The notes beneath the pieces are model-generated. The model searched no databases. It saw nothing but the letters and a program-made list of their open reading frames with translations, and was not told the origin of the DNA. Shown one piece after another: positions 13,973 to 47,813 of a stretch of 47,813 nt of DNA; the stretch's first letter is position 1, and every line of letters starts with the position of its first letter. The stretch lies in the IMG/VR virus record IMGVR_UViG_3300031696_000011; one strand, written 5' to 3'. Source of the stretch: a virus. Both the position numbers and the translations under genes were made by a program.

Positions 13973-16129
13973 TTAAATGAAGAATTTTGTCAGCAAGTTC
14001 ATGAAGTTTTTACCTCCATCACCAGAAGAAGAAGCATCGAGTTGTGCTTTGCTTCCAAGCTTGTCTTTGAGTTTACGTTGTGCTGCTGCTTTGACCATTC
14101 CGTCTCCGCCAGCATTTGCTGCAGCACCGCCTTGTATAAGTTTGCTAAGCATACCAGAAGGCTCACCGCCACCACCACCTAGACCACTCAGCATACTACC
14201 TATCGCAGCCTTAAATTTCTCTTGCCCTAGCTCTTTAACAGAACCAGCATTCACAACCTGCCCAAATAGTCCATCGCTATCAACAGCACTCTTCGCAGCA
14301 TCTTGACCCATAGCTTTAACAGACCCAGCTTGCATAAGCTTTTGAAGCAAACCAGCAGGTTCCGCACTTGCCGAATCGGGAGCTGTGGGCACGGGGACTA
14401 CCTGCACACCACTGTCCCGCGGTTCCAATCCCCCGCCGCGAATGATGGCAGGCTGACCAGTAGGTAAAGGCCCCGGCACCATTGCAGGACTACGAGAAGG
14501 CGGGATAGGCTGGGAAGGTAGCGTAGCAGGTGTGGGAATTGCAGGAATAGGAATAACCTTCCGCTCTCTAGCAGGTGCAACGAATGGGGGCGGTGCAACG
14601 AATGTGGGCGTTGTAGCACTTTTTCCAATCTGTGACTCTATCGCTTTAATCTCAGCTTCGACTGCTAGACTTTGTTGCATAAGCCCGTCGATTCTCTGGC
14701 CTTCATTCCTAATCTGCACCGGATGATTAGGGTCTGGAGCATAACCAGGTAAAAACGATAACGGATTAAAGATTGTAGGTTCTGGGCCAGGTTTACGTTT
14801 TGCTTCAGCACCAAGCTCTTTAGATTTCTCCTTGAGCTCACGTAGCTTAGCATCTAGTTTTACTCTGGTTTGTTTACGCACAACTTCTTCGTGCTTATTT
14901 TGCGCTTTGAAAACATCATTTAGCCGTGGCGAAGGTGAAGTTTCGCCAACCACACTTCGCGGATCAGCACCCGGCACACCACCTCCAGCATCCGGTGAGC
15001 CCGGAATCGGCACTCGTGGTTTGTCTTGCCTGTTGTAAAAAACTGTAAATGGATCTTGCGCTTCCACAACTTCCGTTGTGAGATTACCCTCAGAGTCTGT
15101 CACAGTAGTGGTTGACGGATTCACCCCAGGACGAGTGACAACTTGGCTACCAAAAATTTTACCTGCATTAAGATCAGGGTTGACGGTTAGGATATTTTCA
15201 CCAAGTGCGTCTGACGTGTTGCGATTAACATCGTTTCTGTATGAGTTGTGCTCCTCATCTTCGTTCTCTGTCGTCTGTTTTATACGCGTCCCAGTCAGGT
15301 TCTGCGTTCTAGTAGACGCCCGATTCAAGTCGTTCACAACTCCCGCCGCATTGTGTTTCTCAATTACACTATCTTCATACGCTTTTTTTCCTTCGGGCGA
15401 ATTAAGCACTCCAACTTCAGCACTGTCCTTCAGGGCTGATATCATCTTAGGCCCAAGCTCATTCATTTTGTTAAACTGCCTGCCAGAATTTTCCAGGTCC
15501 TTTAGCTCCATCGACTCCACGACACCAACAGCAGCTTTTAGACTAATCCCCTTATCAGTTCGAAGCTTTCTTATAGCCAAAGCACGACCTGTAGCCATGT
15601 TAACTATGCTATCAGCTTCTTTTGCTTCTTTGATTTTTTCCGCGCGTATTGCTTTCTCTATATCACGCTTGTCTTTGAGCTGTTTCTTTTTCTCTTTAGT
15701 AGTATTCTCTCCAGCAGTTTTTGCAAGCTTTGCATTAAGATTTGTAAGCCTCCTGTCACTTTTCGCGAGCTGTCTATTTGTCTCACGACGATTGTCCGTG
15801 GCAAGATCGATGTTATTGACAGCATTAGTCTGTGCCAGCTTCGCAGCAGCTAGCCGTCGCGTTTGCAATTTGTTAGCTACTTTCTCAGCTTTATCATCCG
15901 AGAGTTTATTCAGCTGCATGCTACTTCGCAAATTTCTCGCATTCGCACCTGCGCTACCAAGCGAGAAGAAATTCTTCATCTTGCTAGGTTGCTCAACGAC
16001 AAGCTTGCCGTCCACGATACGCGTTTTTGGTGTAGCCAAAGAGTTCATTAGCAACTGGCGCATAGCACCATTCGCTGAACCTGCTCCGCTTCCACTACCC
16101 TTTGCTGGTCGTCTTGGTCTTCCTGCCAT
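13973..16129 (-). CDS. Internal virion protein, ~718 aa, Lys-rich coiled coil, Pro-rich middle, Gly-rich repeated C-terminus
   Basis: Long ORF upstream of the giant protein. The ATG at 16129 lies just past the upstream stop; the alternative ATG at 16147 overlaps the upstream gene by 17 nt. Compositionally biased. Confidence 0.65.
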   Translation of the reverse strand: MAGRPRRPAKGSGSGAGSANGAMRQLLMNSLATPKTRIVDGKLVVEQPSKMKNFFSLGSAGANARNLRSSMQLNKLSDDKAEKVANKLQTRRLAAAKLAQTNAVNNIDLATDNRRETNRQLAKSDRRLTNLNAKLAKTAGENTTKEKKKQLKDKRDIEKAIRAEKIKEAKEADSIVNMATGRALAIRKLRTDKGISLKAAVGVVESMELKDLENSGRQFNKMNELGPKMISALKDSAEVGVLNSPEGKKAYEDSVIEKHNAAGVVNDLNRASTRTQNLTGTRIKQTTENEDEEHNSYRNDVNRNTSDALGENILTVNPDLNAGKIFGSQVVTRPGVNPSTTTVTDSEGNLTTEVVEAQDPFTVFYNRQDKPRVPIPGSPDAGGGVPGADPRSVVGETSPSPRLNDVFKAQNKHEEVVRKQTRVKLDAKLRELKEKSKELGAEAKRKPGPEPTIFNPLSFLPGYAPDPNHPVQIRNEGQRIDGLMQQSLAVEAEIKAIESQIGKSATTPTFVAPPPFVAPARERKVIPIPAIPTPATLPSQPIPPSRSPAMVPGPLPTGQPAIIRGGGLEPRDSGVQVVPVPTAPDSASAEPAGLLQKLMQAGSVKAMGQDAAKSAVDSDGLFGQVVNAGSVKELGQEKFKAAIGSMLSGLGGGGGEPSGMLSKLIQGGAAANAGGDGMVKAAAQRKLKDKLGSKAQLDASSSGDGGKNFMNLLTKFFI

Positions 16130-16130
16130 A

Positions 16131-16568
16131 TTAATTCCTGTGTGCAACAGCGCGTGCTTCGCTGCTAATTTCTCTTACAAAGTTATATCCTGCGACGATT
16201 CGCAAGACGGTTAAAATCATATCATACCCTGCATGCCGTAACACATCTGCGTGTTCGCGCTTCCATCGTGTTCCGCCTTGTTCCCATTCAACACTATCTG
16301 CATACGTGTTAACAATGATAAGAAACACCGGCGCCAAAGTCTCTTTGTGCTGTTGATAAAATGCTGACGAGAACACTCGTTCCGCGCGGATGAAGCTTTT
16401 GAGAAACGTTTCATTCTTCGCTCTAAGTATATCGTCTGTGTCTGTTCCGCGAATCGGCTCGTCGATAACGTCATCAATGTCGTGCACAAACGCTGTCCAC
16501 TCAAGCACAAACGCTTTCGCATCTGGGAATTCATTAAGCTTCGCATCGACTTTTTCTTTCCAGCTCAT
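16131..16568 (-). CDS. Hypothetical virion-module protein, 145 aa
   Basis: ATGA overlap with the upstream gene. Predicted helical. No known motif apart from an Asp-rich DIDDVIDE stretch. Confidence 0.55.
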   Translation of the reverse strand: MSWKEKVDAKLNEFPDAKAFVLEWTAFVHDIDDVIDEPIRGTDTDDILRAKNETFLKSFIRAERVFSSAFYQQHKETLAPVFLIIVNTYADSVEWEQGGTRWKREHADVLRHAGYDMILTVLRIVAGYNFVREISSEARAVAHRN

Positions 16569-19524: not shown

Positions 19525-20472
19525 TTAATACCGGCCATTAAGCCACCTACCGTCCATCATTTCTGACACCGGATTTGCTGCGAAGTTCATTCCTTGCTTG
19601 TCATTCTTCCGCGCTTGTGCGTTCAAATCGTCTGCAAGATCTTTACCCATACCATTCAATATCAATGCTGCTTGCGAACCAGAACTATCTTGTCCTTTTG
19701 CTCGCGCAACTGCAAGCTGAATGATCGCCTCGTCGTATAGGTCACCGGCAGGAAATATATCCTCGTCGTTAACGAATGGCAACCACCGCATTTTGTATGA
19801 ATACTCATACACCTCGTTCTCTGTCAAGCCTTGTCGCCCGTCAGACACTTGCACTAGCAGAAAGTCTGTCCTAAGCAATGCATTGTGCAACGACGAAACC
19901 TCCGTGCCTTCAACGTCAGACACTTTGATGTCCACCGCAGTGATCTTATCTTTCGACAAGTTATCCACACGCACCCATGACTTCGACGAACTCACACTAG
20001 TCACACCTGCAGCTAGCACAACCAACTCCCGCGACTTGCTTGCATCGGGTGTCTCACCGATAATCGCCATCGTCACATCTTCACTCAACGCTTCTTCCAC
20101 GCTGAATGTGAGCACACCTTTGTTCGTGGTATGCGTGTGAAATACAGACTTGCCCTTCACACGCCACCGATATCCGCCCACATCAATCCGCTGTTCGACA
20201 TACCGTGGTCCGGTATATTCGTGCGGAATCTGCGTCAACGAATCACGATGCAGGATGTTCCACAACTCGCCCACTTCTGCAGGTAGTGTGATCTGGTCCT
20301 GTTGTGACGGCAACACAAGCATGGCTTCACGATGAGACCATTTCAAGTCACGTGTGTCATACAGTGTCTTTGCTGCAGCGTTAACTTGCCGCAACAAAAA
20401 CGACCTGTCTCGTGCATCGTCTAGGGAATATCCCATCGACTCCGCCATCTCAGTGAGTATATATTTAAGCAT
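19525..20472 (-). CDS. Virion structural protein, putative tail adaptor/tubular protein, ~315 aa
   Basis: Positional call. The ATG at 20472 gives an 8-nt overlap with the upstream gene; the ATG at 20493 gives 29 nt. Confidence 0.45.
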   Translation of the reverse strand: MLKYILTEMAESMGYSLDDARDRSFLLRQVNAAAKTLYDTRDLKWSHREAMLVLPSQQDQITLPAEVGELWNILHRDSLTQIPHEYTGPRYVEQRIDVGGYRWRVKGKSVFHTHTTNKGVLTFSVEEALSEDVTMAIIGETPDASKSRELVVLAAGVTSVSSSKSWVRVDNLSKDKITAVDIKVSDVEGTEVSSLHNALLRTDFLLVQVSDGRQGLTENEVYEYSYKMRWLPFVNDEDIFPAGDLYDEAIIQLAVARAKGQDSSGSQAALILNGMGKDLADDLNAQARKNDKQGMNFAANPVSEMMDGRWLNGRY

Positions 20473-21613
20473 TGTGTCTAACGAATGCCTCAATTACGAG
20501 GTCGAAATCTACACTCAGGGCAGTTGTGCTTCCGCTATATGCGGTGCTTCGTGTGCCGTCTGCCTTAAGTATATGCCAGTTACCAAACGAGTTATCAAAA
20601 ATTGTAACGTCCACGTTGGTCGCACTCATCATCAAACTATGACCACCGAACCTGTCGTCACTTTCACCTGCAAGATTGTTCAAGGGTATTCTGTCACCAA
20701 ATGTATAATCGTGCGTGCCAAAATTAGCCTTGACTTGTAGGTATGCGAATGCAAAATCAGGCATCACAGCAACGCCCACTGCATTCGTTAACCCGTGCAA
20801 AAATGGTGTGGTTTTGTGTGTAGCAACACTTCCCGTATTCGCTGCTGTCGGATCATACCAATCAGTAATCAAACCTGTGGAATACTTCTTCAACGGTGCA
20901 ACCCACTCGACCTCGTTCACTCCAACTTTCTTCACTGCGAACATCCTGTCTGTCACAGCAATCACGTTCAGCTTGTTCGGGTCGATTGTGTTATCCGCGA
21001 TCTTCGCATTAGTCACGGCCAGATCTTTGATCTTGTCTTCCTCAACAGCGTCAATCAGAATCTTACTCGCGTCCACACTATTAATAGCTAACGTCTCCAA
21101 CGTGACCTGCAACAAACCAATCTTCGGCGTGGTGACTGCCAAGTCTGCAATCTTATCTGTGGTAACGTTCAAGATCTTAATGTGTGCTGACACCACAGCG
21201 TTCGTTGCTATCTTATTCTCACTCACCGAACCATCACCTAGCTTCGAGTTCACCACAGACATGTCATCAAGCTTCGTCTCGTCAACTGCAAGCGCCGCAA
21301 TCTTAGATCGTGTAACCGCACCATTGGCAATCAACGCCTCAACAATCGTGCCTGCACCCACTGCTCCCGGTGCCCATGTTGCGAGAACTGGGCTGTAAAC
21401 CTTTGCAACATATGGCTCAGCGCTTGTGTCAATCCACACATATCGCTTGAACTTGGCATCCGCCCCTGTCACGCTTGGCTCAGTTGTCTGAACGATAACC
21501 AGTCCCCTATCTGCAGCAGGTTCAAGACCTTCTTGCATCGTGTTAAGGTCAGCTTTGGATGCTCCACGTCGGGTGTCGTAGTCGATTGCTTTGGTAAAAT
21601 CTAAAGATGGCAT
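20465..21613 (-). CDS. Tail fibre protein with periodic ~11-aa K(I/L)-x-x-x-A(V/I) repeats
   Basis: Residues ~95-215 are SKIAALAVDETKLDDMSVVNSKLGDGSVSENKIATNAVVSAHIKILNVTTDKIADLAVTTPKIG...KIKDLAVTNAKIADNTIDPNKL, typical of fibre shaft repeats. Confidence 0.65.
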   Translation of the reverse strand: MPSLDFTKAIDYDTRRGASKADLNTMQEGLEPAADRGLVIVQTTEPSVTGADAKFKRYVWIDTSAEPYVAKVYSPVLATWAPGAVGAGTIVEALIANGAVTRSKIAALAVDETKLDDMSVVNSKLGDGSVSENKIATNAVVSAHIKILNVTTDKIADLAVTTPKIGLLQVTLETLAINSVDASKILIDAVEEDKIKDLAVTNAKIADNTIDPNKLNVIAVTDRMFAVKKVGVNEVEWVAPLKKYSTGLITDWYDPTAANTGSVATHKTTPFLHGLTNAVGVAVMPDFAFAYLQVKANFGTHDYTFGDRIPLNNLAGESDDRFGGHSLMMSATNVDVTIFDNSFGNWHILKADGTRSTAYSGSTTALSVDFDLVIEAFVRHNA

Positions 21614-22976: not shown

Positions 22977-23378
22977 TTATTTCAGCGGGCTTTTAAGTTT
23001 GGCCGCTTCTGTAATCACGTTACTCAGTCGCTCTTCCGTGGCAACACCCTTGGCTTTCACACCCGAGTCGTTCTTGTATGTTCCCTTTCGGTTACCAACA
23101 AGCTCGTCAGCTTTGCTCTTTGCAATAATGCTCAAGCCTTTTGCCCGCGACAAGTCAGCAACATCCACGCTATACGCGTTCGTAGTGTAGTATGTGATCT
23201 TATATAGTTCACCATTCGTATAGTGAACCTCAAGAGCTGACACATTGTTTGTTCCGTCTTTGGGGAACTTAGCATGGAAACCAGACTCCTGACCATACCA
23301 TAGTCCACCGCAACCCGTTAGCATCGCAGCAGCAACCGCCACCGCAGCTATGATTAGTTTTTTATTTATCTTTTTCAC
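22977..23378 (-). CDS. Lipoprotein, 133 aa (lipobox LTGC)
   Basis: N-terminus MKKINKKLIIAAVAVAAAMLTGCGG is a signal peptide II with a lipobox. GTG start. Confidence 0.7.
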   Translation of the reverse strand: MKKINKKLIIAAVAVAAAMLTGCGGLWYGQESGFHAKFPKDGTNNVSALEVHYTNGELYKITYYTTNAYSVDVADLSRAKGLSIIAKSKADELVGNRKGTYKNDSGVKAKGVATEERLSNVITEAAKLKSPLK

Positions 23379-23389
23379 AATGTCCTTGT

Positions 23390-23405
23390 AGCAATTCGCA
23401 TGCCA
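23390..23405 (-). promoter_or_regulatory. Sigma-54 type -24/-12 promoter candidate (TGGCATGCGAATTGCT)
   Basis: The minus strand reads TGGCATG-CGAA-TTGCT with canonical GG/GC spacing. It fills the 30-nt gap between the stop at 23409 and the GTG at 23378. Confidence 0.6.
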
Positions 23406-23408
23406 CTA

Positions 23409-26659: not shown

Positions 26660-26696
26660 AGAAAATGTGGTGGGTTTGATGTTATCTCACCCACCA
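26660..26696 (-). terminator. Hairpin/weak intrinsic terminator after the capsid gene
   Basis: 9-bp stem acccaccac / gtggtgggt (26666-26674 and 26688-26696), followed on the minus strand by attttct. Confidence 0.45.
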
Positions 26697-26722: not shown

Positions 26723-28024
26723 CTAGGCCGCAACCCTAGTCCGACGGAATATAACCGCGAATGCATGACGACGATTCACAGGCAGAATCCCGTGAACGGT
26801 GTCGGCAATAAGCTGCACGAATTCACCGTATTTATTCGTCTCCAACACCGGAGTTCCTGCTGTGCCGTAGTTCACGAGGAAGTCCGAAGTAAGGCGAACC
26901 TCACCATTCCAGCGAAGCTGGGAGAACTTCCGCGCATCCATACGACCTGTTCCGAATTCTTTGGGAGGTGCGCCAACGTCGATTGACTCATACGCACCAC
27001 CACCAATGCAGAATGCAACCTCGAACGGTGCATCGACATACGCAGGATTCGGAATCGTCTCGCCCAAGTTGAACGTGCCACCAACGGCATTCTCAATCTG
27101 CGGCGCAGGAAACTCTCCACCTGCGTCAATACGCAACGGGAAACGTTCCGTCTTCCAAACTCCCTTGCTTCCGATCAGACCAGAAAAGTCCTCACCGGTG
27201 TAGTCCTTGTCGTTGGATCGCAACGCAAGAACGTTCGCATCGTGCTCGAAGTATTCGAATGCTTCGTTCGAACCGACCCAGCACAGTTTGCCCTTGATCG
27301 TTTCGTTCGGAGAAGGCATACCTTGCATCTGTTCGAAACCAGGCATCTGCAAGTCCTCGGTCGCAATCGTCTGCGCCTTCTTGGCGAGGTTGAACTTCAA
27401 CGCACCAGAAGCTCCAGCAGGGATCTCTGCAATCGCACCTTGAATCCACGCCGTAGTTTTCGCAGCAGTTCCAGCGATGTTGCCAATCCCAGACGGTGCA
27501 GCAACAAAGTCATCACCGATGTATCCGCCAGTAGTCGTGGTGCTCTTACCAGCAAGCAACACATACGGGCAGTAATGAAACAGCATTGTGCGAATGAACT
27601 GATCGTTCGCAATCGCAATCTGCTGAGTGAGGTCCGCCATGTTGTGCGGAATTTGCTGGCGACGAAAGTCCGCGAACGAACCATTGAAACGAATATACTT
27701 CGTCTCATACTGATGCCTGTAAACAACCGCATCTTCAGTCCGCTCACCAGTTTGATGCACGTCACGATTCGGTGCCGCGGCAGTGATCGCATTGGGGAAG
27801 AACTGCTGACGACCAACAGGACTGAACTCAGCGTTGACACCTTTCAGTGTATCACCCTGATTCGCTTCCCATTTTCGTTTGCCGAAGAGTTTGTTGAACA
27901 CATGCCATCGCGGAAACAATCGCGAGGACATCAGCGCCAAATGATATGGCAGCTTGTTATAGAGCGTAGTGCTCTGTGAATCCCAGATATCTGGGGTTTT
28001 GGGTAGATCGTATGTGCTAGGCAT
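26723..28024 (-). CDS. Major capsid protein (positional call), 433 aa
   Basis: Gene order is TerL-portal-small ORF-scaffold-this gene. It has its own promoter-like element upstream and a hairpin downstream. Size is typical of HK97-fold coat proteins. Confidence 0.7.
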   Translation of the reverse strand: MPSTYDLPKTPDIWDSQSTTLYNKLPYHLALMSSRLFPRWHVFNKLFGKRKWEANQGDTLKGVNAEFSPVGRQQFFPNAITAAAPNRDVHQTGERTEDAVVYRHQYETKYIRFNGSFADFRRQQIPHNMADLTQQIAIANDQFIRTMLFHYCPYVLLAGKSTTTTGGYIGDDFVAAPSGIGNIAGTAAKTTAWIQGAIAEIPAGASGALKFNLAKKAQTIATEDLQMPGFEQMQGMPSPNETIKGKLCWVGSNEAFEYFEHDANVLALRSNDKDYTGEDFSGLIGSKGVWKTERFPLRIDAGGEFPAPQIENAVGGTFNLGETIPNPAYVDAPFEVAFCIGGGAYESIDVGAPPKEFGTGRMDARKFSQLRWNGEVRLTSDFLVNYGTAGTPVLETNKYGEFVQLIADTVHGILPVNRRHAFAVIFRRTRVAA

Positions 28025-28201
28025 TACTTTATTCTTTCAAGGGTTCGCAAACAAAAGCCTGTGACGTTGCGATGCCCTTCGCGAAAGAAGCTGGTCATGC
28101 CCTTGACCGATAAGAAGCGTTTGGGAAGTTTGAAAAGCTCTCCGGCTTTCAATTTGCGGTGTTTTCTTCACCATTCACAGGCTCATAACAATACAACATA
28201 A

Positions 28202-28217
28202 AGCACATACCATGCCA
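28202..28217 (-). promoter_or_regulatory. Sigma-54 type -24/-12 promoter candidate (TGGCATGGTATGTGCT) upstream of the capsid gene
   Basis: The minus strand reads TTGGCATGGTATGTGCTT, matching the plus-strand element at 44186-44203 at 16 of 18 positions. It is intergenic, directly after a terminator. Confidence 0.65.
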
Positions 28218-28231
28218 ACGCTGCAAGCAAG

Positions 28232-28265
28232 AAAAAAAGGAACACCCATTTCTGAGTGTTCCTTT
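28232..28265 (-). terminator. Intrinsic terminator after the scaffold gene
   Basis: Perfect 10-bp stem aaaggaacac (28236-28245) / gtgttccttt (28256-28265), followed on the minus strand by a run of 7 T. Confidence 0.75.
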
Positions 28266-28316: not shown

Positions 28317-29576
28317 TTACATGGGATTTCCGTCTTCGTCATCCCAACCTATACTATCAAGCATGTGTTCTGCTCCACCTGTTTGACCAGCAACGTGATT
28401 GCCAGTTGGTCCCGCCGCTTGCATTTCTGCATTTACAGTTTGCGCGGGCTGCCCTGCTGCCGTTTGCTGTTGTTGATTTTGTGTTCCTGCCGGTGCGAGT
28501 GCGCCGAATCGTTTATGATACGTCTGCAACTGCGCCGTGACTGACGACAATGTGATAAACATTTTCGACACCGTCGGCATGAGCGGATCATTCCTAAACG
28601 ACGAAGGCATCATCTCGGTAAACTGCTCTGCCTGTTTGGCACCTGTGGTTTTCCAATACTCACCGTCTGACTTCAGATTGGAAAAATACCGATCTTCCAA
28701 CGCATGGATCATACCCAGATCTTCGTTGTATTTTTCCACATGCCCAGTCTCAATGCTCTTCAACACAGCCAACTCACCCTCACGCTCACTGTTCGTCGTG
28801 GTGTGCGATTGTGTCAGGTGCTGTATCGCAGCCTCACGTGTTGTCTGTCCAGCTTCCTCACCAATCGGATGTTGCGAATACTGCGGCTCACCTGCGTCAT
28901 TGTAACCAGAGATCGTGTAAAACGACACCTGATCTGGATTACCCACCACAGCGTTCAACTGATTCTCATAGAACGTTGCCTGTGTGTTCGCTGCTTGATA
29001 CTTATCAAGCCCTGACTGATACGCTGGCGTAAGTGTGTATGCCTGATCGTGGCTTTGATAACTCGCCGGCACTCCTGCAGAATCTGTCAACTGCGCTGCA
29101 ACAGCTTCCGCATCAGTCACTCGCTTCTGCAATGCTGGCAGTCGTGTTTTGAAATGGTCAAACGCCGCGTTCGGCATCCCGCGCAACGCAGCACGATCAC
29201 CTTCTTCAAACACATCAAGCTCACGCCCTTGTGCTTCAGGAAGCGGTGCAATAGTTACTGGGGCCTGCGGCGCTGCAACTACAGCTTCCGCAGCAGTTCG
29301 TGCAGCAATTTGTTCCGCAGTCAGTCCAGTTGTATCTGGCGCAAGCTCAGGCTCAACAACCGGTGCAGGTGCAGGTGCAGGTGTGCTTCCCATGAAGTCT
29401 TCGAAATCTCCCATATCGAGGATCTCTCCTTCTCCACCTAGCATCGCGTCGTTACCTCCACTATTGGGCAATGCTACTGCTGGTGGTGCACCGTTTGCAC
29501 CGCCTGGGATTGTTGTTGTGACATCTTTCGGAGGGCTAGCTCCGAAGTCTGGTAGTGGTGTAGTCGGTGTTGACAT
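28317..29576 (-). CDS. Scaffolding protein (positional/compositional call), 419 aa
   Basis: Between portal and capsid genes. Ala/Gln/Pro/Glu-rich, helical, low-complexity sequence. Confidence 0.6.
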   Translation of the reverse strand: MSTPTTPLPDFGASPPKDVTTTIPGGANGAPPAVALPNSGGNDAMLGGEGEILDMGDFEDFMGSTPAPAPAPVVEPELAPDTTGLTAEQIAARTAAEAVVAAPQAPVTIAPLPEAQGRELDVFEEGDRAALRGMPNAAFDHFKTRLPALQKRVTDAEAVAAQLTDSAGVPASYQSHDQAYTLTPAYQSGLDKYQAANTQATFYENQLNAVVGNPDQVSFYTISGYNDAGEPQYSQHPIGEEAGQTTREAAIQHLTQSHTTTNSEREGELAVLKSIETGHVEKYNEDLGMIHALEDRYFSNLKSDGEYWKTTGAKQAEQFTEMMPSSFRNDPLMPTVSKMFITLSSVTAQLQTYHKRFGALAPAGTQNQQQQTAAGQPAQTVNAEMQAAGPTGNHVAGQTGGAEHMLDSIGWDDEDGNPM

Positions 29577-31745: not shown

Positions 31746-33356
31746 TTAGTTTCGTGTTGCGCCCATGTAACCGTAGACTGGTGCAGATTTTCGCGACTCT
31801 CCGCGCGCGTCTACGCCAGAGAAAGAATATTTGCTTTTATCGTATTCCGCAATAATATCTTTAGTGGTTCTGCGACGAAGCAGACGTGAATTTTTAACTA
31901 GGTGTTCGTTTGAATAGAGCGGGTATTCCTTATCAGCAAGAGCAAGAACTGTGCCATCAGCACGGTCAGGAGATCCGTGACCTTTCGCACGTGCAACACG
32001 TTTTGACTCAAGCACAATTTTTCCGTGAACCGCGCCTTGCATATAGTATCGTGTCGCAAGTTGCCGCTTGAGTGCGTCGTCGTCGAACAACACAAGGTCT
32101 AGGTTCTTGAGGAATATTGCAAAGTTAAACCACATCTCTGCGCCGCGATTACCGTATGTCGAATTGTCAATCGCCCGCGCTTGGTTCAATACTCGGTTAA
32201 CTTGAAACCCGTCCTTCCACAACTGATCTATCATAGACTTGCCCACGCCGCCGTCGTCAGCGTTGATATTTTCTGGCGGAATCTTATACCTATTTATCAA
32301 ACCCTTCACATGATCCACCGCATCGGTCGTGTCGTCATACCTAAAGCAAGGCATCGCAATCTGTTTGTTGCCATCAAATATACTGAACACATTTTCGTCA
32401 CCTCCCGCCGCAAGATCAAGCCCACCGTATCGTATGCCTGTCGGTATCACAACCGGAGGTTTTCGATACGCGCGCATGACCTCTTCAAATGTCATCACTA
32501 GCATCTCGTCTATGCTACAAAATTCGGCTAGGTATGCAGACCTAAACCACGCGGAATTTTCACCGAATCGTTCTCGCGCTTCGTCTACTTCGTCCTGTGA
32601 TATGTGCGGACAGTCACGATACGTGACTTTGAACCGATGCCAACGCTCTGACTCGAAACAACCATAGAAATGCCCGGATGGGGAACCTGGTGAAGACACA
32701 TCCAACCGCCGAGTGAGATTATTACACCGGGCGAGAGCTTCGAAAATGGGCTCCGTGACAGTTTTTGCTTCGTCAACAAAGATTGCAAATTCGCCATCGG
32801 GTCGGAGAGTGTGATAACCTTCAGCCAAGCCCGCGTCGTCGGTAGCAAAGAGTTGGATCTTAGATTTGGTTGGGATAAATGTGAGACTGCGGTAGTTGAT
32901 CTTCCAGAGGATTTCGCCATGGAGCTCATTGATAAATCTGCACAGCCGTGAAACTGCGTAGAAGGTTTGTCTGTCAAGTTGCGTGCCTGACGCGGAAGTA
33001 ATCACACAATTCGCTTCCACGTGCGCCATCGCAAGCCACACTGCACACGGTGCAATTAAAAACTGCGATTTTCCCGAACCATTGTTCGCGCACGTCGCAA
33101 TACGCAACACTTTATCCGGCAGCTTGCCATGTGCAAACAACGTCATGACTTGAATCTGCCATGTGTGCACTTTTACGTCGTGATCGCGGATGTATGGGTC
33201 GTAGATGTGCAACAACATCAACGGATCTTTGATCTTGAACCCATTTGCGCCAGCCCAACCCTTCGCATCGGTAATCGACGCTTTAGGCAAGCGCGATTCC
33301 TGGTCGACAGTGGCGTTTTTGATCTGTGCTTCTACTGTTTGTCGAAAAGGCGCCAT
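31746..33356 (-). CDS. terL: Terminase large subunit
   Basis: Walker A-like CANNGSGKSQF. Walker B FAIFVDEA. C-terminal RNase H-like nuclease Asp motifs GGLDLAAGGDENV, ADDGGVG and SPDRADG. Confidence 0.85.
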   Translation of the reverse strand: MAPFRQTVEAQIKNATVDQESRLPKASITDAKGWAGANGFKIKDPLMLLHIYDPYIRDHDVKVHTWQIQVMTLFAHGKLPDKVLRIATCANNGSGKSQFLIAPCAVWLAMAHVEANCVITSASGTQLDRQTFYAVSRLCRFINELHGEILWKINYRSLTFIPTKSKIQLFATDDAGLAEGYHTLRPDGEFAIFVDEAKTVTEPIFEALARCNNLTRRLDVSSPGSPSGHFYGCFESERWHRFKVTYRDCPHISQDEVDEARERFGENSAWFRSAYLAEFCSIDEMLVMTFEEVMRAYRKPPVVIPTGIRYGGLDLAAGGDENVFSIFDGNKQIAMPCFRYDDTTDAVDHVKGLINRYKIPPENINADDGGVGKSMIDQLWKDGFQVNRVLNQARAIDNSTYGNRGAEMWFNFAIFLKNLDLVLFDDDALKRQLATRYYMQGAVHGKIVLESKRVARAKGHGSPDRADGTVLALADKEYPLYSNEHLVKNSRLLRRRTTKDIIAEYDKSKYSFSGVDARGESRKSAPVYGYMGATRN

Positions 33357-34096
33357 ACTAGTCTCTTATATTTACTCATATCGTGGTCTTGAACTGGGTT
33401 AAAGTTAAATTGGCGTATTGCACTCCACACTCCTTGGAATAAATCACGCAATAGAAACATGCGCGAAGGATTTACGTGGAACTCGCCACGTGTATCGAAG
33501 TGAATAAGCGGGACTGCAATACGCCGAAAATTAATCACAGGAATCCACGTCACAATATCGTTGTTGTCCCGAAACGTGACCGCATGCTTGTCGCCAGCGA
33601 ACCTACGTGCGTATTTTCCGTTCCCTACTCGAGGACTAGCGAACGCGCACAGGTAAATTGCCGGGTTTGTGGTTGGGAATCCGTATGTTTTCGTGTTCGA
33701 ATACATAATCGTCGCTATCGCCGCGCCTAGACTATGCCCTGTGAACACAATTCTGTCATACGTAGGTTGGCGACGCAAGATTTCAACCAACAACCCTAAC
33801 CACACCCCTTGCACACGTCGCATAAACCCACGATGCACGCGACTTCCATCTTTGTCGAACTTCACTTTCCTCACCATCACGTTCGCAACCCAGTCTCGCG
33901 CCGCAAGCGTGCCGCGCACTGCCACATACAACGTCCTGTCTTTGTTGTCTAGGTGCAGTATCGCATGTGTGCCGTGAGTTCCGTCGAACTTCATATACAG
34001 GCTTGAATCGCCATATGCCTCAACACACAAATCTGCCGCGCAAGTGACCCATCGTGACTGTAGATGCGCGTGTTTGTATATCGGGTTAGACATCAA
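33332..34096 (-). CDS. Class 3 lipase-family alpha/beta hydrolase (Lipase_3)
   Basis: VAVRGTLAARDWVANV, HRGFMRRV, the nucleophile elbow FTGHSLGAAIA, FASPRVGN and DIVTWIP occur in the order typical of PF01764. Confidence 0.85.
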   Translation of the reverse strand: MMSNPIYKHAHLQSRWVTCAADLCVEAYGDSSLYMKFDGTHGTHAILHLDNKDRTLYVAVRGTLAARDWVANVMVRKVKFDKDGSRVHRGFMRRVQGVWLGLLVEILRRQPTYDRIVFTGHSLGAAIATIMYSNTKTYGFPTTNPAIYLCAFASPRVGNGKYARRFAGDKHAVTFRDNNDIVTWIPVINFRRIAVPLIHFDTRGEFHVNPSRMFLLRDLFQGVWSAIRQFNFNPVQDHDMSKYKRLVWRLFDKQ

Positions 34097-34505: not shown

Positions 34506-34723
34506 ATTGTTACGCCAGTAAACTGTTCCACCAACATTCTTTCGCTCTCCCTCGCTTCACCTTTGATGTCTGCGTCGTGCGCCGCAGGCCTACGGCTCGC
34601 ACATTCGCCCTCTTCTCCTTTCCACCTCCACTGCAACATCTTATTCATCGGCGCCGTCGTCGCACTTCTAATCGTTGCACTCCCAAACCCTACTTCTTTT
34701 CCTCTATGCTTGTGTGTATTCAT
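34502..34723 (-). CDS. Hypothetical protein, 73 aa, first ORF of the late operon
   Basis: ATGA overlap with the downstream gene supports translation. Its ATG lies 14 nt downstream of the C of the -12 GC of the promoter-like element. Confidence 0.4.
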   Translation of the reverse strand: MNTHKHRGKEVGFGSATIRSATTAPMNKMLQWRWKGEEGECASRRPAAHDADIKGEARESERMLVEQFTGVTI

Positions 34724-34735
34724 TCTCTATCTTAT

Positions 34736-34751
34736 AGCAATTCCCATGCCA
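34736..34751 (-). promoter_or_regulatory. Sigma-54 type -24/-12 promoter candidate (TGGCATGGGAATTGCT) at the head of the late operon
   Basis: The minus strand reads TGGCATG-GGAA-TTGCT with correct GG-N10-GC spacing. It sits at the upstream edge of the ~26-kb minus-strand gene array. Confidence 0.65.
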
Positions 34752-35151
34752 TGCTTCCGTGCGTCGTTTCGTGTACCACGTTTTCACAATCAAATATGTC
34801 AAGTCGATTCGTAATTTTGGTCATTTTGTAAGATATACACTGTTCGGATGCCGAACTCAGATCGGGCTTTTTATTTCCGCGGCGTAGGATTAGATCGCCT
34901 AATGGTTAGCATAAGGAAAACTAATCATAAGTGAATTACTTATATATGTTAAGCGCGCGGGAAGTTAATACATACGCCAAGCGGGGACGCCGTGAATCCT
35001 TAACAACTTTGGTTAGGAATTGAATCGCCAGTGTGAAAACCCTAGAAAATCGCCGGAGGATCAGAGAGCACGACGAGAGGGCAAACATGAAACGCATATG
35101 TCTTTTCAGAATATCCGGTTTGGTCTGGGGAATGGGCGGTTACTCTTTTCC

Positions 35152-35182
35152 GTGGAATGTGAAGAGAACCTTTCCATTCCAC
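35152..35182 (+). repeat. Hairpin element R1 containing the 18-nt repeat gtgaagagaacctttcca
   Basis: 8-bp arms gtggaatg (35152-35159) / cattccac (35175-35182). The 18-mer at 35159-35176 recurs exactly at 35306-35323. Confidence 0.8.
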
Positions 35183-35305
35183 CCCCCCGCTCTCGAATGG
35201 GCAAATGGGCAATTCCACATTAAAGAGGATTTAATAAAAAAAACATATATACCAAATACTCTCTTTTGTGGTCTACCAAAGTTGCTAACAGTCGACGGAG
35301 AAGTA

Positions 35306-35334
35306 GTGAAGAGAACCTTTCCACATTCCACATT
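35306..35334 (+). repeat. Second copy (R2) of the 18-nt repeat, followed by tandem ccacatt-ccacatt
   Basis: Exact 18-nt match to 35159-35176, with flanking ttccac similarity. Confidence 0.8.
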
Positions 35335-35409
35335 CTCTCCCTTGTCCCTTGTCCGGTTCATGGTTCATACGGTTCCACGCTTTGCTTTGATTCACGCCAG
35401 AGGATGAAG

Positions 35410-35503
35410 GAATGAAGGAGCGGGAGAGTGAAGGAGCGCACGACGCAAGGGAATGGACAAGGGAAGGAGCGCGGAGAATGGGAGTGAATGAAGGAGCGCG
35501 GAG
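35410..35503 (+). repeat. Direct repeats: GAAGGAGCG x4 (35414, 35430, 35463, 35490); 14-mer gaaggagcgcggag x2; 13-mer gaatgaaggagcg x2
   Basis: Counted directly in the sequence. A fifth degenerate copy, aaaggagca, is at 35521. Confidence 0.85.
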
Positions 35504-35612
35504 GTAATAGGTAAAGGGGAAAAGGAGCATGGGAAAAGAATCAGAAGAAAAAGCGAATAGGGGTTGACGGGAAAAGGGAAAGAGTCCATTCTCTCCGTGT
35601 CGCCAATTGGTG

Positions 35613-35637
35613 ACCCGGATTTATCCGGTTGTTTTTT
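35613..35637 (+). terminator. Weak intrinsic terminator candidate
   Basis: 5-bp GC-rich stem ccgga / tccgg (35615-35619 and 35624-35628) with loop ttta, then ttgtttttt. Confidence 0.35.
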
Positions 35638-35861
35638 GACAGGTTCGCAGTTGAGACGGTTTCCATGAAACCAGATTGACTAGAACAAATTGAATAGGTG
35701 AAAGGAAAACCTTTCACGCCGGTGGAGTATCGGCACAAGTCCTAAGCTTGCGAATGAGTTCATTGCCTTCGAAAATTCAGGGTTACAAGCCAAAGTAGAG
35801 TTGTGTCTAACGTTCAAGATCGGCGGTGAAATGGAATGGCCGGAAACTTAGAGAAATTGGG

Positions 35862-35890
35862 TTTACATAGGAGAATCTCTGGATTCTAAT
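35862..35890 (+). promoter_or_regulatory. Sigma-70 type early promoter candidate (TTTACA-N17-TCTAAT)
   Basis: -35 TTTACA at 35862-35867, a 17-nt spacer, and -10 TCTAAT at 35885-35890, directly upstream of the first plus-strand gene. Confidence 0.5.
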
Positions 35891-37003: not shown

Positions 37004-37270
37004 ATGAAAAAACTTATATTGCAGGCTGAACAGTTGCGTCAAGAATGCAACATGGCTATCTCCAATATCAGAGCACGTCTATCCCATGTCCCTTGGGAAC
37101 AAGGGTTGCGGATGGACTCAGAACTCACTGAATGTCATTTGCACAGATGCGCGAATATGTTGCGGAACATTAGCGACGACTGTGCAAACAACAGAGTCAG
37201 TGAGGTGTCAGCGCAAGGCGACATCGCAGGTGTTGAAAAGCACATGACGGTGATTGCGAAATACTTGTAA
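37004..37270 (+). CDS. Early hypothetical protein, 88 aa
   Basis: Preceded by aaaggaatatc-ATG, one of the few clear SD-like sites in the window. Confidence 0.6.
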   Translation: MKKLILQAEQLRQECNMAISNIRARLSHVPWEQGLRMDSELTECHLHRCANMLRNISDDCANNRVSEVSAQGDIAGVEKHMTVIAKYL

Positions 37271-37592
37271 CCCTATCTCACGGGCACACTACACGGTTCT
37301 TGGATGTGAAAGATCTGTCAGCGGCAATCTATGGGACCGCACAGTCAAGAACGAGCGGATAAATACAGTGTTGGGAATCGCGATTGCGCCGCAGGCTTGT
37401 GATACTACGCAAGCCACGGAGATGCAAAACCTACCCGACACAACTTCTGGGACGACTACTCTAGTATTGGCTGAAGGGAGACGAAGCATTAGAAACGGCA
37501 GAGAGTGGAGAGAAATCCATGTGACAAACTCTGTTTATGACCGTTCCGCGTATAGGTTAGCGGCTATTGGCAAGGTAAATGCTCCCGTGTAG
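37254..37592 (+). CDS. Doubtful ORF, 112 aa (an internal start at 37422 is possible)
   Basis: It is the only ORF filling 37.27-37.6 kb. Overlaps the upstream stop. No motifs. Its 3' end contains a promoter-like element. Confidence 0.3.
   Translation: MRNTCNPISRAHYTVLGCERSVSGNLWDRTVKNERINTVLGIAIAPQACDTTQATEMQNLPDTTSGTTTLVLAEGRRSIRNGREWREIHVTNSVYDRSAYRLAAIGKVNAPV
37568..37583 (+). promoter_or_regulatory. Weaker sigma-54 type -24/-12 match (TGGCAAGGTAAATGCT)
   Basis: Correct GG/GC spacing. Shares TGGCA-GGTA--TGCT with the elements at 28202 and 44187. A terminator follows about 50 nt downstream. Confidence 0.35.
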
Positions 37593-37631
37593 GACAATGG
37601 TTCTACAAGATAAACCCGAATTACACGATTG

Positions 37632-37675
37632 GGAGCGCACAGTTTACAGACACTCTGTGCGCTCCTTCTCTTTTT
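37632..37675 (+). terminator. Intrinsic terminator
   Basis: Perfect 11-bp stem ggagcgcacag (37632-37642) / ctgtgcgctcc (37655-37665), followed by ttctcttttt. Confidence 0.8.
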
Positions 37676-38707: not shown

Positions 38708-38989
38708 ATGAACGAAATACTAAATGACTTGAAAGATCTCTATCATGCAGCGATAGACAATCGTAACCTCTTTGCTGCGCGTGCTGCTGCTGCGCCATGT
38801 GAAGACATGGTGTTGCACAACAACCTTATGTCTGTGTCGGAATCGTATGCTGCAATCGCGCTGCGTATCGGGGACATCATTAGCAAGTATGACGAGGTTG
38901 ATCCTGAAGTTGCACCTGTCACATCCACGCGGGAACATTGCCATGACAAGTTCAACAACATTGGCGAAGCAATTGATGATGCATCATAA
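38708..38989 (+). CDS. Hypothetical protein, 93 aa
   Basis: Tightly packed ORF. The antisense ORFs look like shadows. Confidence 0.5.
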   Translation: MNEILNDLKDLYHAAIDNRNLFAARAAAAPCEDMVLHNNLMSVSESYAAIALRIGDIISKYDEVDPEVAPVTSTREHCHDKFNNIGEAIDDAS

Positions 38990-39067: not shown

Positions 39068-39433
39068 ATGACAATCAAGCACACACAAACACGTGCGCCA
39101 GTTAGGGTTGCTAACCACTTTCGCGTTGCTAAGTATCGCGAGACACTGTGGATAGTGTATACACTGACTGATCTCATTGCCAAGATCAAAGCGTCGATGC
39201 TAGCATCAGGTAAACACAGGCATATTGTGGTCGTGACACACTTCGATCATGTCAGTGTGGACAGTGATGGTGTGACGTTTCACAGGTATGAAAGTATCAG
39301 CACAGGACATTCGTATATGAATAACGAAATCATTATACCATCGTGCGAACTTACGGCAGGTGCATTAGAGAGGCTTGAACATATGCAAGAACACTCTGCA
39401 CTATGCAGTCAAGTTGATCGACAACAATCATGA
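39068..39433 (+). CDS. Hypothetical protein, 121 aa
   Basis: First ORF downstream of the promoter-like element. ATGA overlap with the next gene. Confidence 0.55.
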   Translation: MTIKHTQTRAPVRVANHFRVAKYRETLWIVYTLTDLIAKIKASMLASGKHRHIVVVTHFDHVSVDSDGVTFHRYESISTGHSYMNNEIIIPSCELTAGALERLEHMQEHSALCSQVDRQQS

Positions 39434-42779: not shown

Positions 42780-43200
42780 TACAGACCTGACCAAAGAAGA
42801 GATTGCGGACGGCGACGACTACATTGCCGAGACAATCGCGCAACAAGCGCGAGACAAAGCTGCGGCAAAGAAACCACCAGCACGACAGCTTGAATTGTAT
42901 GTGATCTTCGCGTGGAAGACACCGCAGTATAGGCTGCACGAATGGTGTCAGACTGGTGAGACGGCACCTAACGACTCTCAGTGTGTGCATTGTGATCGCA
43001 CGATGGGTGACGCTGATGATCGTGTATGTGATTCAGGCATGGCTGGTGCGCTTGGTGGATGGAACGACTACAAAGGTGGTAGTGGAAACTTCGGCATTGC
43101 GATGTTGAAGTGGCAGACATTGAAAGCGCAAGGACATAACAACTGTCAGGTGTTGAACATACACAGCGGCAAGCTAGAGTTGGAGGTGTATGATGCTTAG
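42772..43200 (+). CDS. Hypothetical protein, 142 aa
   Basis: 8-nt overlap with the upstream gene. Contains CVHCD...C Cys residues. Confidence 0.5.
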   Translation: MSDTDLTKEEIADGDDYIAETIAQQARDKAAAKKPPARQLELYVIFAWKTPQYRLHEWCQTGETAPNDSQCVHCDRTMGDADDRVCDSGMAGALGGWNDYKGGSGNFGIAMLKWQTLKAQGHNNCQVLNIHSGKLELEVYDA

Positions 43201-44176
43201 CACAGAGGAGTTGGCGCGGATAAATGAGGCGACCAAACGGCAAGCGGCAACTGTTGAAGCGAACAAGGCGCGGTTGCTAAATCAACCACCGAACCCTAGC
43301 GGAGTGGATCACGGTGCGATCAAACGTAAGCTAGAAAAGATGGGACTGTTTGAGTTGGCGAATGATCTCAAGGTCTGTCGTCCAGCAAGTCTTGCTTCGC
43401 TTGATGAGTTTATCACAGATGACGCGGCGATGTTGCGGCTCAAGAAACAGGTTGAGTATCTGTGCGAGATGGATGACCCAGTGTTGATTCACGGTGAGAG
43501 TGGGACAGGCAAGGAGTTGATAGCTCGTGCGTTGCATGGACGAAAGTCAGCGCCGTTTATCGCAGTCAACACGACAGCACTACCACTTCATCTGATGGAG
43601 AGTGAGTTATTTGGTCATGCGAAAGGATCATTCACCGGTGCAGATGCGAACAAGATCGGGATACTTGAAGGCGCAGGTAACGGGACTGTGTTTCTGGATG
43701 AGATAGGTGACATGGAGTTGACGCTGCAATCGAAGTTGTTGCGTGTGTTGCAAGAGAAAGTAATCAGACCTGTCGGCACGAATGCTGAGCGTGAGATACA
43801 TTGTCGAGTAGTGGCAGCCACGCATCAGGTGATACGACGTGAGGAAACAGTTCATGGAACTAAGTCAGTCACGTGGAAGAAAGGTTTCCGTCAGGATTTA
43901 TACTGGCGTCTTGCTACACACACGCTTCACATCTCACCGCTTCGTGATCGTCCAGATGATATCCGTGAGATACTAGATGCGGTCATAGATCCTGACCAAC
44001 GATTGCCTGAATCATTCCGTGACGAGATGGTAACGATGCAACTGGAAGGCAACTTCCGTGAACTCAATGCGTTGTGTCAGCGTAAGTTTCTTGCAATGAA
44101 AGTGGACGATACGCAGGGTGAACTTTATATACCCGGTGTTGTGACACACGCAGCCTACGTCCACACAAAAGAGTAA
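43190..44176 (+). CDS. Sigma-54 interaction-domain AAA+ ATPase (minimal bacterial enhancer-binding protein; no sensory domain or HTH seen)
   Basis: VLIHGESGTGKELIARALH (Walker A), FGHAKGSFTGA (GAFTGA loop, nt 43625-43642), GTVFLDEIGDM (Walker B), LQSKLLRVLQE, FRQDLYWRL, ISPLRDRPDDI and GNFRELNA. About 95 aa precede the module and about 30 aa follow it. Confidence 0.9.
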   Translation: MMLSTEELARINEATKRQAATVEANKARLLNQPPNPSGVDHGAIKRKLEKMGLFELANDLKVCRPASLASLDEFITDDAAMLRLKKQVEYLCEMDDPVLIHGESGTGKELIARALHGRKSAPFIAVNTTALPLHLMESELFGHAKGSFTGADANKIGILEGAGNGTVFLDEIGDMELTLQSKLLRVLQEKVIRPVGTNAEREIHCRVVAATHQVIRREETVHGTKSVTWKKGFRQDLYWRLATHTLHISPLRDRPDDIREILDAVIDPDQRLPESFRDEMVTMQLEGNFRELNALCQRKFLAMKVDDTQGELYIPGVVTHAAYVHTKE

Positions 44177-44186
44177 CGCAACCTGT

Positions 44187-44202
44187 TGGCACGGTATGTG
44201 CT
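44187..44202 (+). promoter_or_regulatory. Sigma-54 type -24/-12 promoter candidate (TGGCACGGTATGTGCT)
   Basis: TTGGCACG-GTAT-GTGCTG begins 11 nt after the activator gene's stop and lies 28 nt upstream of the ATG at 44230. Confidence 0.65.
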
Positions 44203-44229
44203 GTATAAGAACTGTCCACCTCCCCGAGT

Positions 44230-47681: not shown

Positions 47682-47813
47682 GCCTTAAACGATTCAGCAA
47701 ATATACAACCTACGTCCCCGGTGAGAAACTCATCGTGCGACTAGATCCATCCACGTTTGCAATCTCTGACTGCGAGCGTGAGCTTGAGCTAGGCAACCTG
47801 TTAGGTTGGGTGG
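47678..47813 (+). CDS. First ~45 codons of the same Cas4-like nuclease gene (continues at base 1..954)
   Basis: The ATG at 47678 overlaps the TGA of the preceding gene (ATGA). Reading MSLKRFSKYTTYVPGEKLIVRLDPS... joins frame 1 at base 1 through the 127-nt overlap. Confidence 0.7.
   Translation, partial: MSLKRFSKYTTYVPGEKLIVRLDPSTFAISDCERELELGNLLGWV
47687..47813. repeat. Right copy of exact 127-nt terminal overlap
   Basis: Identical to 1..127. A length of 127 nt is what a k=127 assembler leaves on a circular contig. Confidence 0.95.

Follow-up and report, generated by a model that had tools for sequence, protein, structure and literature searches.

The major capsid gene of an uncultured marine phage, whose genome is available as IMG/VR virus record IMGVR_UViG_3300031696_000011, is very probably transcribed from a sigma-54 (-24/-12) promoter within a system that combines the sigma-54 of the host with an activator encoded by the phage. 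This promoter lies on the minus strand of the 47,813 nucleotides (nt) that we analyzed and hereafter call the window. It has a near-identical twin on the plus strand, which follows the activator gene and heads the remaining plus arm with its genes for ligase, nuclease, DNA polymerase A and primase. A preliminary description of this DNA had already proposed the promoter and noticed its twin; the activator gene, six further promoters, and a conserved RNA motif within the capsid mRNA leader were absent from it.

Sigma-54 Sites in the Window and in Related Phages

Direct comparison of the 18-mers TTGGCATGGTATGTGCTT (28218-28201, minus strand) and TTGGCACGGTATGTGCTG (44186-44203, plus strand) confirms that they are identical at 16 of 18 positions, as previously reported. 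Both copies carry GG and GC within TTGGCAYG-N4-TGCT, the sigma-54 -24/-12 consensus, and fit 12 (28202) and 13 (44186) of the 14 specified positions in the extended consensus YTGGCACGrNNNTTGCW. The GG-N10-GC spacing of the capsid promoter is exact, and is the same in all eight sites of the window (table 1) as well as in related phages. The claim that the likeness of the two copies is beyond chance is also upheld, for the 17-mer with at most three mismatches has three matches versus 0.14 expected and none of 100 shuffles reaches three. The likeness stops at the motif borders, and the spacer GGTATG is the same in both copies but differs in the other six sites. Transcription from the capsid promoter is predicted to start near 28191, 12 nt past the C of the -12 element.

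The eight sites were obtained with a position weight matrix (PWM) built from the sigma-54 sites of related phages, using a threshold of at least 15 bits and 100 dinucleotide shuffles as background. Their number compares with 0.31 expected and a maximum of two in the shuffles, and every one of them is oriented like the genes around it. The least canonical of them is that at 6779-6795, which has AAGCT as its -12 element.

The position of the capsid promoter is conserved. A search with the capsid alignment recovered 80 IMG/VR loci with capsids that are 28-40% identical, and 58 of 79 capsid loci have a same-strand site scoring 15 bits or more in the zone 124-281 nt ahead of the capsid ATG. This zone represents 2.4% of the searched sequence and yet holds 58 of the 139 same-strand matches, with about three expected if these were uniformly distributed. 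Same-strand sites cluster a second time at the head of the structural arm, 5-9 kb before the capsid gene, while sites on the opposite strand lie farther upstream still, on the other arm. The closest comparison is provided by L157, a relative from Tara Oceans with approximately 90% capsid identity: its capsid promoter is identical and counterparts of the sites at 34736, 31941, 23390 and 37567 occur at matching positions, all five checked sites being thus kept. In one clade (L106, L128, L132, L147) the palindrome TCTCAA-NN-TTGAGA abuts the capsid sigma-54 promoter and might serve as a site for a regulator or form a short hairpin.

That the gene downstream of the promoter encodes the major capsid protein, as stated before, finds support in its predicted structure. 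The product has no sequence match in Pfam, PHROG or GenBank phages but 106 metagenomic homologues, and the AlphaFold model built on these homologues (predicted local distance difference test, pLDDT, of 80) retrieves with Foldseek the major capsid proteins of N4, DEV, B2, T7 and HK97 with probability 1.0 and E values down to 8e-12. Among 50,697 GenBank phage records, neither megablast with the region nor tblastn with the capsid retrieved a match; a search of viral contigs with the single capsid sequence was equally negative, but the alignment query succeeded.

Table 1. Coordinates of the predicted features in the window (ORF, open reading frame; aa, amino acids)
Feature	Position	Strand	Details
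Sigma-54 promoter of capsid gene	28218-28202	-	TTGGCATGGTATGTGCT; 19.4 bits; GG 28216-28215, GC 28204-28203
Sigma-54 promoter, twin	44186-44202	+	TTGGCACGGTATGTGCT; 20.0 bits; 10 nt past activator stop codon
Sigma-54 promoter, top score	38994-39010	+	21.8 bits; between ORFs 38708-38989 and 39068-39433, upstream of helicase and activator gene
Sigma-54 promoter	31941-31957	-	20.6 bits; within 3' end of terminase-sized ORF, ~200 nt upstream of portal-sized ORF; identical in L157
Sigma-54 promoter	34736-34752	-	18.9 bits; head of structural arm; same relative position in L157
Sigma-54-like site	6779-6795	+	17.1 bits; within 3' end of DNA polymerase gene, ~140 nt before next ORF
Sigma-54 promoter	23390-23406	-	17.0 bits; 30-nt gap ahead of lipoprotein-like ORF 22977-23378; kept in L157
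Weaker sigma-54-like site	37567-37583	+	16.9 bits; overlaps end of ORF 37254-37592; kept in L157
Sigma-54 activator	43190-44176	+	328 aa; AAA+ domain and ~75-aa helical N-terminus
Major capsid protein	26723-28024	-	433 aa; HK97 fold, nearest N4-like capsids, by predicted structure
Predicted capsid mRNA 5' leader	28191-28025	-	~167 nt; predicted +1 to ATG at 28024
Leader unit 1	28118-28093	-	Box GCTTCT 28118-28113; hairpin GGTCA-AGGGCA-TGACC 28108-28093; 27.4 bits, E 1e-4
Leader unit 2	28091-28069	-	Box GCTTCT 28091-28086; hairpin GCGA-AGGGCA-TCGC 28082-28069; 17.2 bits
Intrinsic-terminator-like hairpin	28265-28232	-	AAAGGAACAC (28265-28256), TCAGAAATGG, GTGTTCCTTT (28245-28236), T7 28238-28232
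Terminator-like hairpin 3' of capsid gene	26697-26662	-	GTGGTGGGT (26697-26689), 13-nt loop, ACCCACCAC (26675-26667), ATTTTC; 9-bp GC-rich stem
ORF upstream of capsid gene	28317-29576	-	419 aa; ends ~50 nt before hairpin; earlier label "scaffold" unconfirmed
Plus arm	35891 via junction to 8695	+	Helicase, activator, ligase OB domain, PD-(D/E)XK nuclease, DNA polymerase A, DUF3987 primase-like protein
Minus arm	~35700 to 8692	-	ORFs: terminase-sized, portal-sized, capsid, tail

The Phage Activator

The gene that precedes the twin promoter encodes a protein matching PF00158 with 181.3 bits (cut-off 20.2; E 1.6e-53), in which the motifs of sigma-54 activators can be recognized: Walker A GESGTGKE, ESELFGH followed by GSFTGA, Walker B FLDEIGD, arginine-finger FRQDLYWRL and sensor II GNFREL. 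The GSFTGA element, at about residue 157, is of the GAFTGA type that forms the sigma-54-contacting loop; the same variant is present in 29 of the 49 full-length cellular homologues retrieved and is common in both the short and the long groups of homologues described below. FleQ, NtrC, FlrA, ZraR, NtrC1, LuxO and PspF are the nearest solved relatives by sequence (PDB), with 33-38% identity to FleQ and NtrC1. The structural model of the protein (pLDDT 91) superimposes on the AAA+ domain of FleQ with a root mean square deviation of ~2.3 A and a template modelling (TM) score of 0.80, and its fold also matches the AAA+ domains of FlrC, NtrC1 and PspF. Compared with FleQ, the activator has an insertion of ~9 residues (residues ~213-230, ~43826-43880), predicted to form a beta-hairpin before the arginine-finger helix. 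The PHROG family that it matches carries the label "unknown function".

No HTH_8 or receiver domain was detected in the activator even at E<=10, nor any other sensing domain (GAF, PAS, V4R) in Pfam, and only ~35 aa remain after sensor II. Because of these features, and of the lack of a shared motif upstream of the promoters (see below), the protein would work like the AAA+ core of bacterial enhancer-binding proteins (bEBPs) rather than as a classical enhancer-binding protein. Its N-terminus is modelled as a long helix plus short helices, with pLDDT of 83-94 over most of residues 1-75. A stretch resembling a helix-turn-helix (HTH) that was seen there by eye (..GAIKRKLEKMGL) was dropped, as no profile supports it.

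The 120 homologues of the activator split cleanly in two groups: proteins of 243-330 aa with PF00158 only, encoded on contigs of ~45-55 kb, versus proteins of 440-490 aa with receiver and HTH_8, encoded on cellular contigs. The phage-type homologues lack PF02954, and in the short forms the median length past sensor II is 17 aa. Activator homologues are encoded on 72 IMG/VR contigs, nine of which are also capsid-locus contigs. Of 54 distinct IMG/VR loci, 33 show a sigma-54 site with a score of 15 bits or higher 1-44 nt past the stop codon of the activator gene, and all 33 have the short activator; the arrangement occurs in none of the loci with long activators of cellular type (450-640 aa). A tblastn search with the activator against the GenBank phage records retrieved for the most part bacterial contigs wrongly labelled as phage. 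Three candidates for known relatives were rejected, namely L279, which encodes a 304-aa activator homologue yet has no sigma-54 site across 38.7 kb, and L280 and L281, the regulators of which are long and of cellular type.

Domain searches among the ~50 ORFs of the phage genome detected no RNA polymerase, sigma-70-family or RpoN domain. The sigma-54 reading of the preliminary description is strengthened from four independent sides: an activator gene stands beside the twin, the eight sites are co-oriented with their genes, the position of the promoter is kept in relatives, and no polymerase or sigma of phage origin is detected.

A Conserved RNA Motif in the Capsid Leader

The predicted leader of the capsid mRNA contains two units, each formed by a box and a small hairpin (table 1), in a layout shared with the capsid leaders of related phages (L086-L152, L155-L158), which are 107-281 nt long. 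In these relatives the stems have 4-6 bp of variable sequence around an invariant AGGGCA loop of 6 nt with an A-U closing pair. Of the 62 leader hairpins, 59 are preceded at 1-7 nt by a GCYWCW box, and two copies of the motif are present in 27 of 53 distinct leaders. The last AGGGCA loop is found 46-102 nt ahead of the capsid ATG, while about half of the relatives have their first box at positions +1 to +4 of the predicted RNA.

Pairing is strongly supported by covariation. Among 49 aligned units, 94.3% of cells pair, versus 50% in shuffles and 25-35% when the partners are slid; double changes occur in all five pairs, and the covariation score of 1.03, which none of 500 shuffles reaches, compares with 0.17. 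The covariance model finds only the two leader copies in the window, and all 57 of its matches in 1.35 Mb of capsid loci share the strand of the capsid gene and lie shortly before it; there is no match in 0.4 Mb of activator loci. Rfam gives no match at gathering score across the whole window, with sub-threshold noise of microRNA type on the terminator hairpin only. The global fold of the leader is no better than that of shuffles (z = +0.25), support being limited to short local hairpins through their covariation. A pattern scan of IMG/VR for the tandem motif returned, among the matches listed, mostly coding or tandem repeats and one true member.

Two other elements were considered and discarded. 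The AGGGCA in the hairpin right after the capsid stop codon (~26720-26700) is likely a chance occurrence, because AGGGCA is missing from this 3' region in all of 66 relatives. A 45-aa ORF within the leader (28037-28174) was ruled out, with no conserved peptide or ORF in relatives. The motif presumably binds a factor for translation, stability or terminator read-through of the capsid mRNA; a translational operator or mRNA stabiliser is at least as likely as a role resembling that of nut sites.

Hairpins Flanking the Predicted Capsid Transcript

The hairpin upstream of the capsid promoter, reported earlier as a perfect 10-bp stem with a run of seven T, is evident in both sequence and folding. 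With RNAfold the stem grows to ~16 bp, the surrounding 102 nt fold with -37.2 kcal/mol (z = -4.2; none of 200 shuffles is as stable) and a separate terminator scan recovers the same element. The A-tract on its 5' side pairs with the T run. The distance from the end of the T run to the first T of the promoter motif is 13 nt, which corrects the 15 nt given previously. In L157, the stem has another sequence (GCGGAGCAT / GTGCTCCGC) but pairing and T run are kept between nearly identical flanks, compensatory changes that point to selection on the structure at the RNA level. The hairpin is present in 5 of 53 distinct relatives, versus a background of 3.6%; in most relatives the promoter directly follows the upstream stop codon.

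The hairpin said to bound the capsid transcript downstream, at 26660-26696, was likewise found (table 1). Among the relatives, one marine clade (L123-L152) has similar strong terminators 3' of its capsid gene, which other clades lack. A cassette bounded by the two terminators, with promoter, leader and capsid gene between them, predicts an mRNA of ~1.53 kb, close to the discrete ~1.5-kb message proposed before; this layout fits the window and L157, but its flanking terminators are not family-wide. Since the hairpins are clade-limited, the full cassette is a feature of this sub-lineage; what does not vary in it is the promoter and the leader.

Alternative Explanations

Many phages have a polymerase or sigma factor of their own with short repeated promoters, and the 17-mer might be one of these, recognized by a phage RNA polymerase or a sigma-70-family factor and resembling sigma-54 sites fortuitously; an unrecognised polymerase could even hide in two ORFs of 1758 and 724 aa that have no detectable domains. 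However, the invariant positions in more than 100 phages are the GG and GC of sigma-54 promoters, with fixed N10 and within TTGGCAYG-N4-TTGCT. Moreover, the genome contains a bona fide sigma-54 activator, directly followed by the promoter in the majority of loci mentioned above, and no domain of polymerase or sigma was detected, so that we consider this explanation very improbable. Scarcely credible is the notion that the two 18-mers are copies of a non-promoter repeat, such as a signal for recombination or packaging, or the product of a recent duplication. Their identity does exceed what the consensus needs, and the spacer GGTATG is common to these two copies only; yet the likeness ends at the motif borders, both copies face the adjacent gene, and the positions upstream of the capsid gene and downstream of the activator gene are each kept in distant relatives with other spacers.

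The promoter being most probably of the sigma-54 type, there is room for different views on the hairpin and the activator. The upstream hairpin might be an element of RNA processing or stability, or a protein site, rather than a terminator, with the capsid gene also transcribed by read-through. Termination is dispensable in most relatives, which lack the hairpin, and the pairing of the 5' A-tract with the T run can weaken termination. This possibility nevertheless appears unlikely, given the canonical terminator anatomy of a GC-containing stem of 10-16 bp followed by seven T, and a site in double-stranded DNA is at odds with the retention in L157 of pairing and T run despite the changed stem. 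As to the activator, it might use enhancers after all if its N-terminal ~75 residues, which are confidently helical in the model, formed a novel DNA-binding domain; bEBPs with non-canonical DNA-binding domains do exist. We find this doubtful, for no HTH family is matched at E<=10, the length of the N-terminus varies among the phage homologues of 243-330 aa, and any sequence shared upstream of the promoters is not beyond chance. Furthermore, there is only coding sequence upstream of 44186, and a terminator lies 13 nt upstream of the capsid promoter.

Proposed Mechanism

We propose that the host's RNA polymerase with sigma-54 would bind the phage promoters and stay there in a locked closed complex; that it is the polymerase of the host would follow from the failure to detect a phage sigma-54. 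Early transcription of the plus arm would make the AAA+-only activator which, because it has no sensor and no DNA-binding domain, would be constitutively active and work from solution without enhancers. A protein of this kind, the AAA+-only DctD(141-390), fires any sigma-54 promoter without an enhancer (PMC3844500). The phage activator would then turn on all phage sigma-54 promoters together, targeting replication genes via 44186 and 6779 and virion genes via the four promoters of the structural arm (34736, 31941, 28202 and 23390), while promoter 38994, upstream of its own gene, would provide positive feedback. At the capsid gene, the upstream terminator would insulate the promoter and, with the second terminator, lead to a discrete and abundant capsid mRNA of ~1.5 kb, controlled by a factor that its two leader hairpins would bind.

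Extended to the relatives, we regard as moderately probable that a widespread lineage of uncultured phages of ~45-55 kb, from marine, freshwater and soil environments, runs its middle and late genes in this way: via host sigma-54, a sensor-less and DNA-binding-less AAA+ activator acting from solution, and a leader RNA element recruiting a factor, possibly a nut-like antitermination complex or one acting at a translational operator. We infer from sequence the RpoN dependence, the enhancer-independence, the timing, the ends of the transcripts and the role of the leader.

Several observations weigh against this scheme. Both near-identical promoters have GTGCT as -12 element, where most relatives have TTGCT. 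The PWM was trained on sites picked by their consensus, which makes absolute bit scores circular to some degree but leaves the enrichments in position and strand unaffected. The predicted starts of the sites at 23390 and 34736 are only 1-3 nt from the start codon and would thus require leaderless translation or another start codon, which suggests either leaderless mRNAs or mis-called starts in the regions 23378-23406 and 34723-34752. No shared sequence or k-mer beyond chance was found upstream of the eight promoters, a weak test with eight sequences only; its absence is consistent with that of enhancers. The ~75-aa N-terminus of the activator could bind DNA or a partner. The upstream terminator is missing in most relatives, and insulation is therefore not essential. 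Finally, the scheme takes for granted that the host of this uncultured phage carries rpoN.

Genome Organization and Other Features

The window has an exact terminal overlap of 127 bp (1-127 versus 47687-47813) and thus represents a circularly closed, complete genome of ~47,686 bp, made up of two divergent arms (table 1). The ORF between the capsid gene and a portal-sized ORF, for which the order is the same in relatives L155-L157, has no match in Pfam or PHROG. Two large ORFs at the end of the structural arm, 8692-13968 (1758 aa) and 13973-16147 (724 aa), both on the minus strand, are also without Pfam or PHROG match and may encode large tail or ejection proteins, on account of the N4-like fold of the capsid and of a weak SU10-adaptor match at 19525-20493. 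Directly upstream of the terminase-sized gene, the ORF 33332-34096 (minus strand) has a class-3 lipase domain (PF01764, E 1e-22); it is kept in L157 and L158 and constitutes an odd content for a virion or packaging module. The lipoprotein-like ORF behind the promoter at 23390 starts with a lipoprotein signal peptide (...AAAMLTGC).

About 40 nt past the site at 37567, within 37567-37675, there is a 12-bp GC-rich hairpin with a U tract, of the strong terminator type (fold z = -4.3); this plus-strand region may produce either a short sigma-54-dependent RNA of ~80 nt or else mark the end of an early operon. The two arms are separated by a mostly non-coding region of ~1.1 kb (34753-35890), a possible origin, packaging site or region of early control. 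It contains four purine-rich direct repeats GA(A/G)TGAAGGAGCGC (35410-35499), an exact 18-nt repeat GTGAAGAGAACCTTTCCA at 35159 and 35306, and several inverted repeats.

A Shine-Dalgarno core of even 4 nt is present in only 8 of 62 genes, versus 8.7% of random windows, and the regions upstream of the genes are A-rich, features that hint at a Bacteroidota-like host; the activator gene is among the few phage genes with a good GGAGG. A capsid-pattern scan of GTDB genomes gave no match. The scan of the same genomes for the tandem leader motif returned 80 stretches with a single true member, which gives no usable host assignment since it is a 4.6-kb contig binned with a metagenome-assembled genome of Terracidiphilus.

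Comparison with Known Systems

Among the GenBank phage records, none resembles the capsid and none shows the module of activator plus promoter, and no cultured relative came to light. We found no study of a sigma-54 or bEBP program of phages in the full-text literature, a description in a subscription journal being possible; a passage on Bdellovibrio phage phi1422 contains a passing mention of a "sigma-54-type regulator" gene (PMC3391216). PMC7693777 proved to concern an unrelated HHpred guess. What we infer to be new is the association of a virus-encoded, enhancer-independent activator with a host sigma-54 program and a capsid-leader RNA motif, the promoter type itself being known.

The leader motif recalls the nut sites of phage lambda, which consist of boxA and the boxB hairpin, and the put RNAs of HK022. 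It shares with them a GC-starting, pyrimidine-rich box near a small hairpin with a conserved loop, in a promoter-proximal and sometimes duplicated arrangement. However, its loop is the 6-nt AGGGCA closed by A-U, whereas boxB has a 5-bp stem with a GNRA-like pentaloop bound by N protein; the resemblance of the GCYWCW box to boxA (GCUCUUUA) is partial. The motif is confined to capsid leaders and absent from other operon starts, and no N-like protein was identified; its membership among nut sites is at best tentative. As a new, strongly covarying cis-acting RNA in a clear genetic context, the motif has a function that is directly testable.

In phage T7, the phi10 promoter, gene 10 and the T-phi terminator produce an abundant monocistronic capsid message. 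This cassette resembles that of the phage studied here in having a strong promoter dedicated to the capsid gene, a 5' leader that is long and structured, and a terminator after the gene, but T7 employs its own single-subunit RNA polymerase, in place of the host polymerase with sigma-54, and the cassette described here has an upstream terminator too. Late transcription in T4 depends on gp55 and gp33 with the gp45 sliding clamp acting as "mobile enhancer". T4 late promoters are also silent until an ATP-linked activator made by the phage acts on bound polymerase; the proteins are nevertheless unrelated, and T4 replaces the sigma factor whereas our phage would borrow a minor sigma of its host.

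To our knowledge, phages time their genes by RNA polymerases of their own, by replacement factors of the sigma-70 family, or by classical activators and antiterminators; a program based on sigma-54, if confirmed, would be a fourth strategy. The sigma-54 holoenzyme sits silent on promoters until an ATPase opens them, and late genes would thus be tightly off and then come on together once one small phage protein appears. It would also follow that these phages are restricted to bacteria carrying rpoN, the loss of which would be a route to resistance, and that infection should fire the host's own sigma-54 regulon as well. The activator and its promoters would form a compact, natural enhancer-independent module, usable for orthogonal expression.

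The bacterial systems of sigma-54 and bEBPs (NtrC, PspF, FleQ, ZraR, NtrC1) have the same GG/GC spacing, PF00158 domain, GAFTGA-type loop, arginine fingers and sensor II as the phage system. They differ from it in that the phage activator is a viral gene product devoid of receiver, GAF, PAS and HTH_8 domains, for which no enhancer was detected; besides, bacterial sigma-54 targets are nitrogen, flagellar and stress genes, whereas those of the phage would be replication and virion genes. Helicobacter FlgR and Chlamydia CtcC are natural bEBPs without a DNA-binding domain and, together with DctD250, as DctD(141-390) is also called, have an AAA+ core without DNA-binding domain like the phage activator. 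FlgR and CtcC keep, however, a receiver under the control of phosphorylation, and DctD250 is artificial; the phage activator appears to be a natural, always-active version, controlled only by the time of its synthesis.

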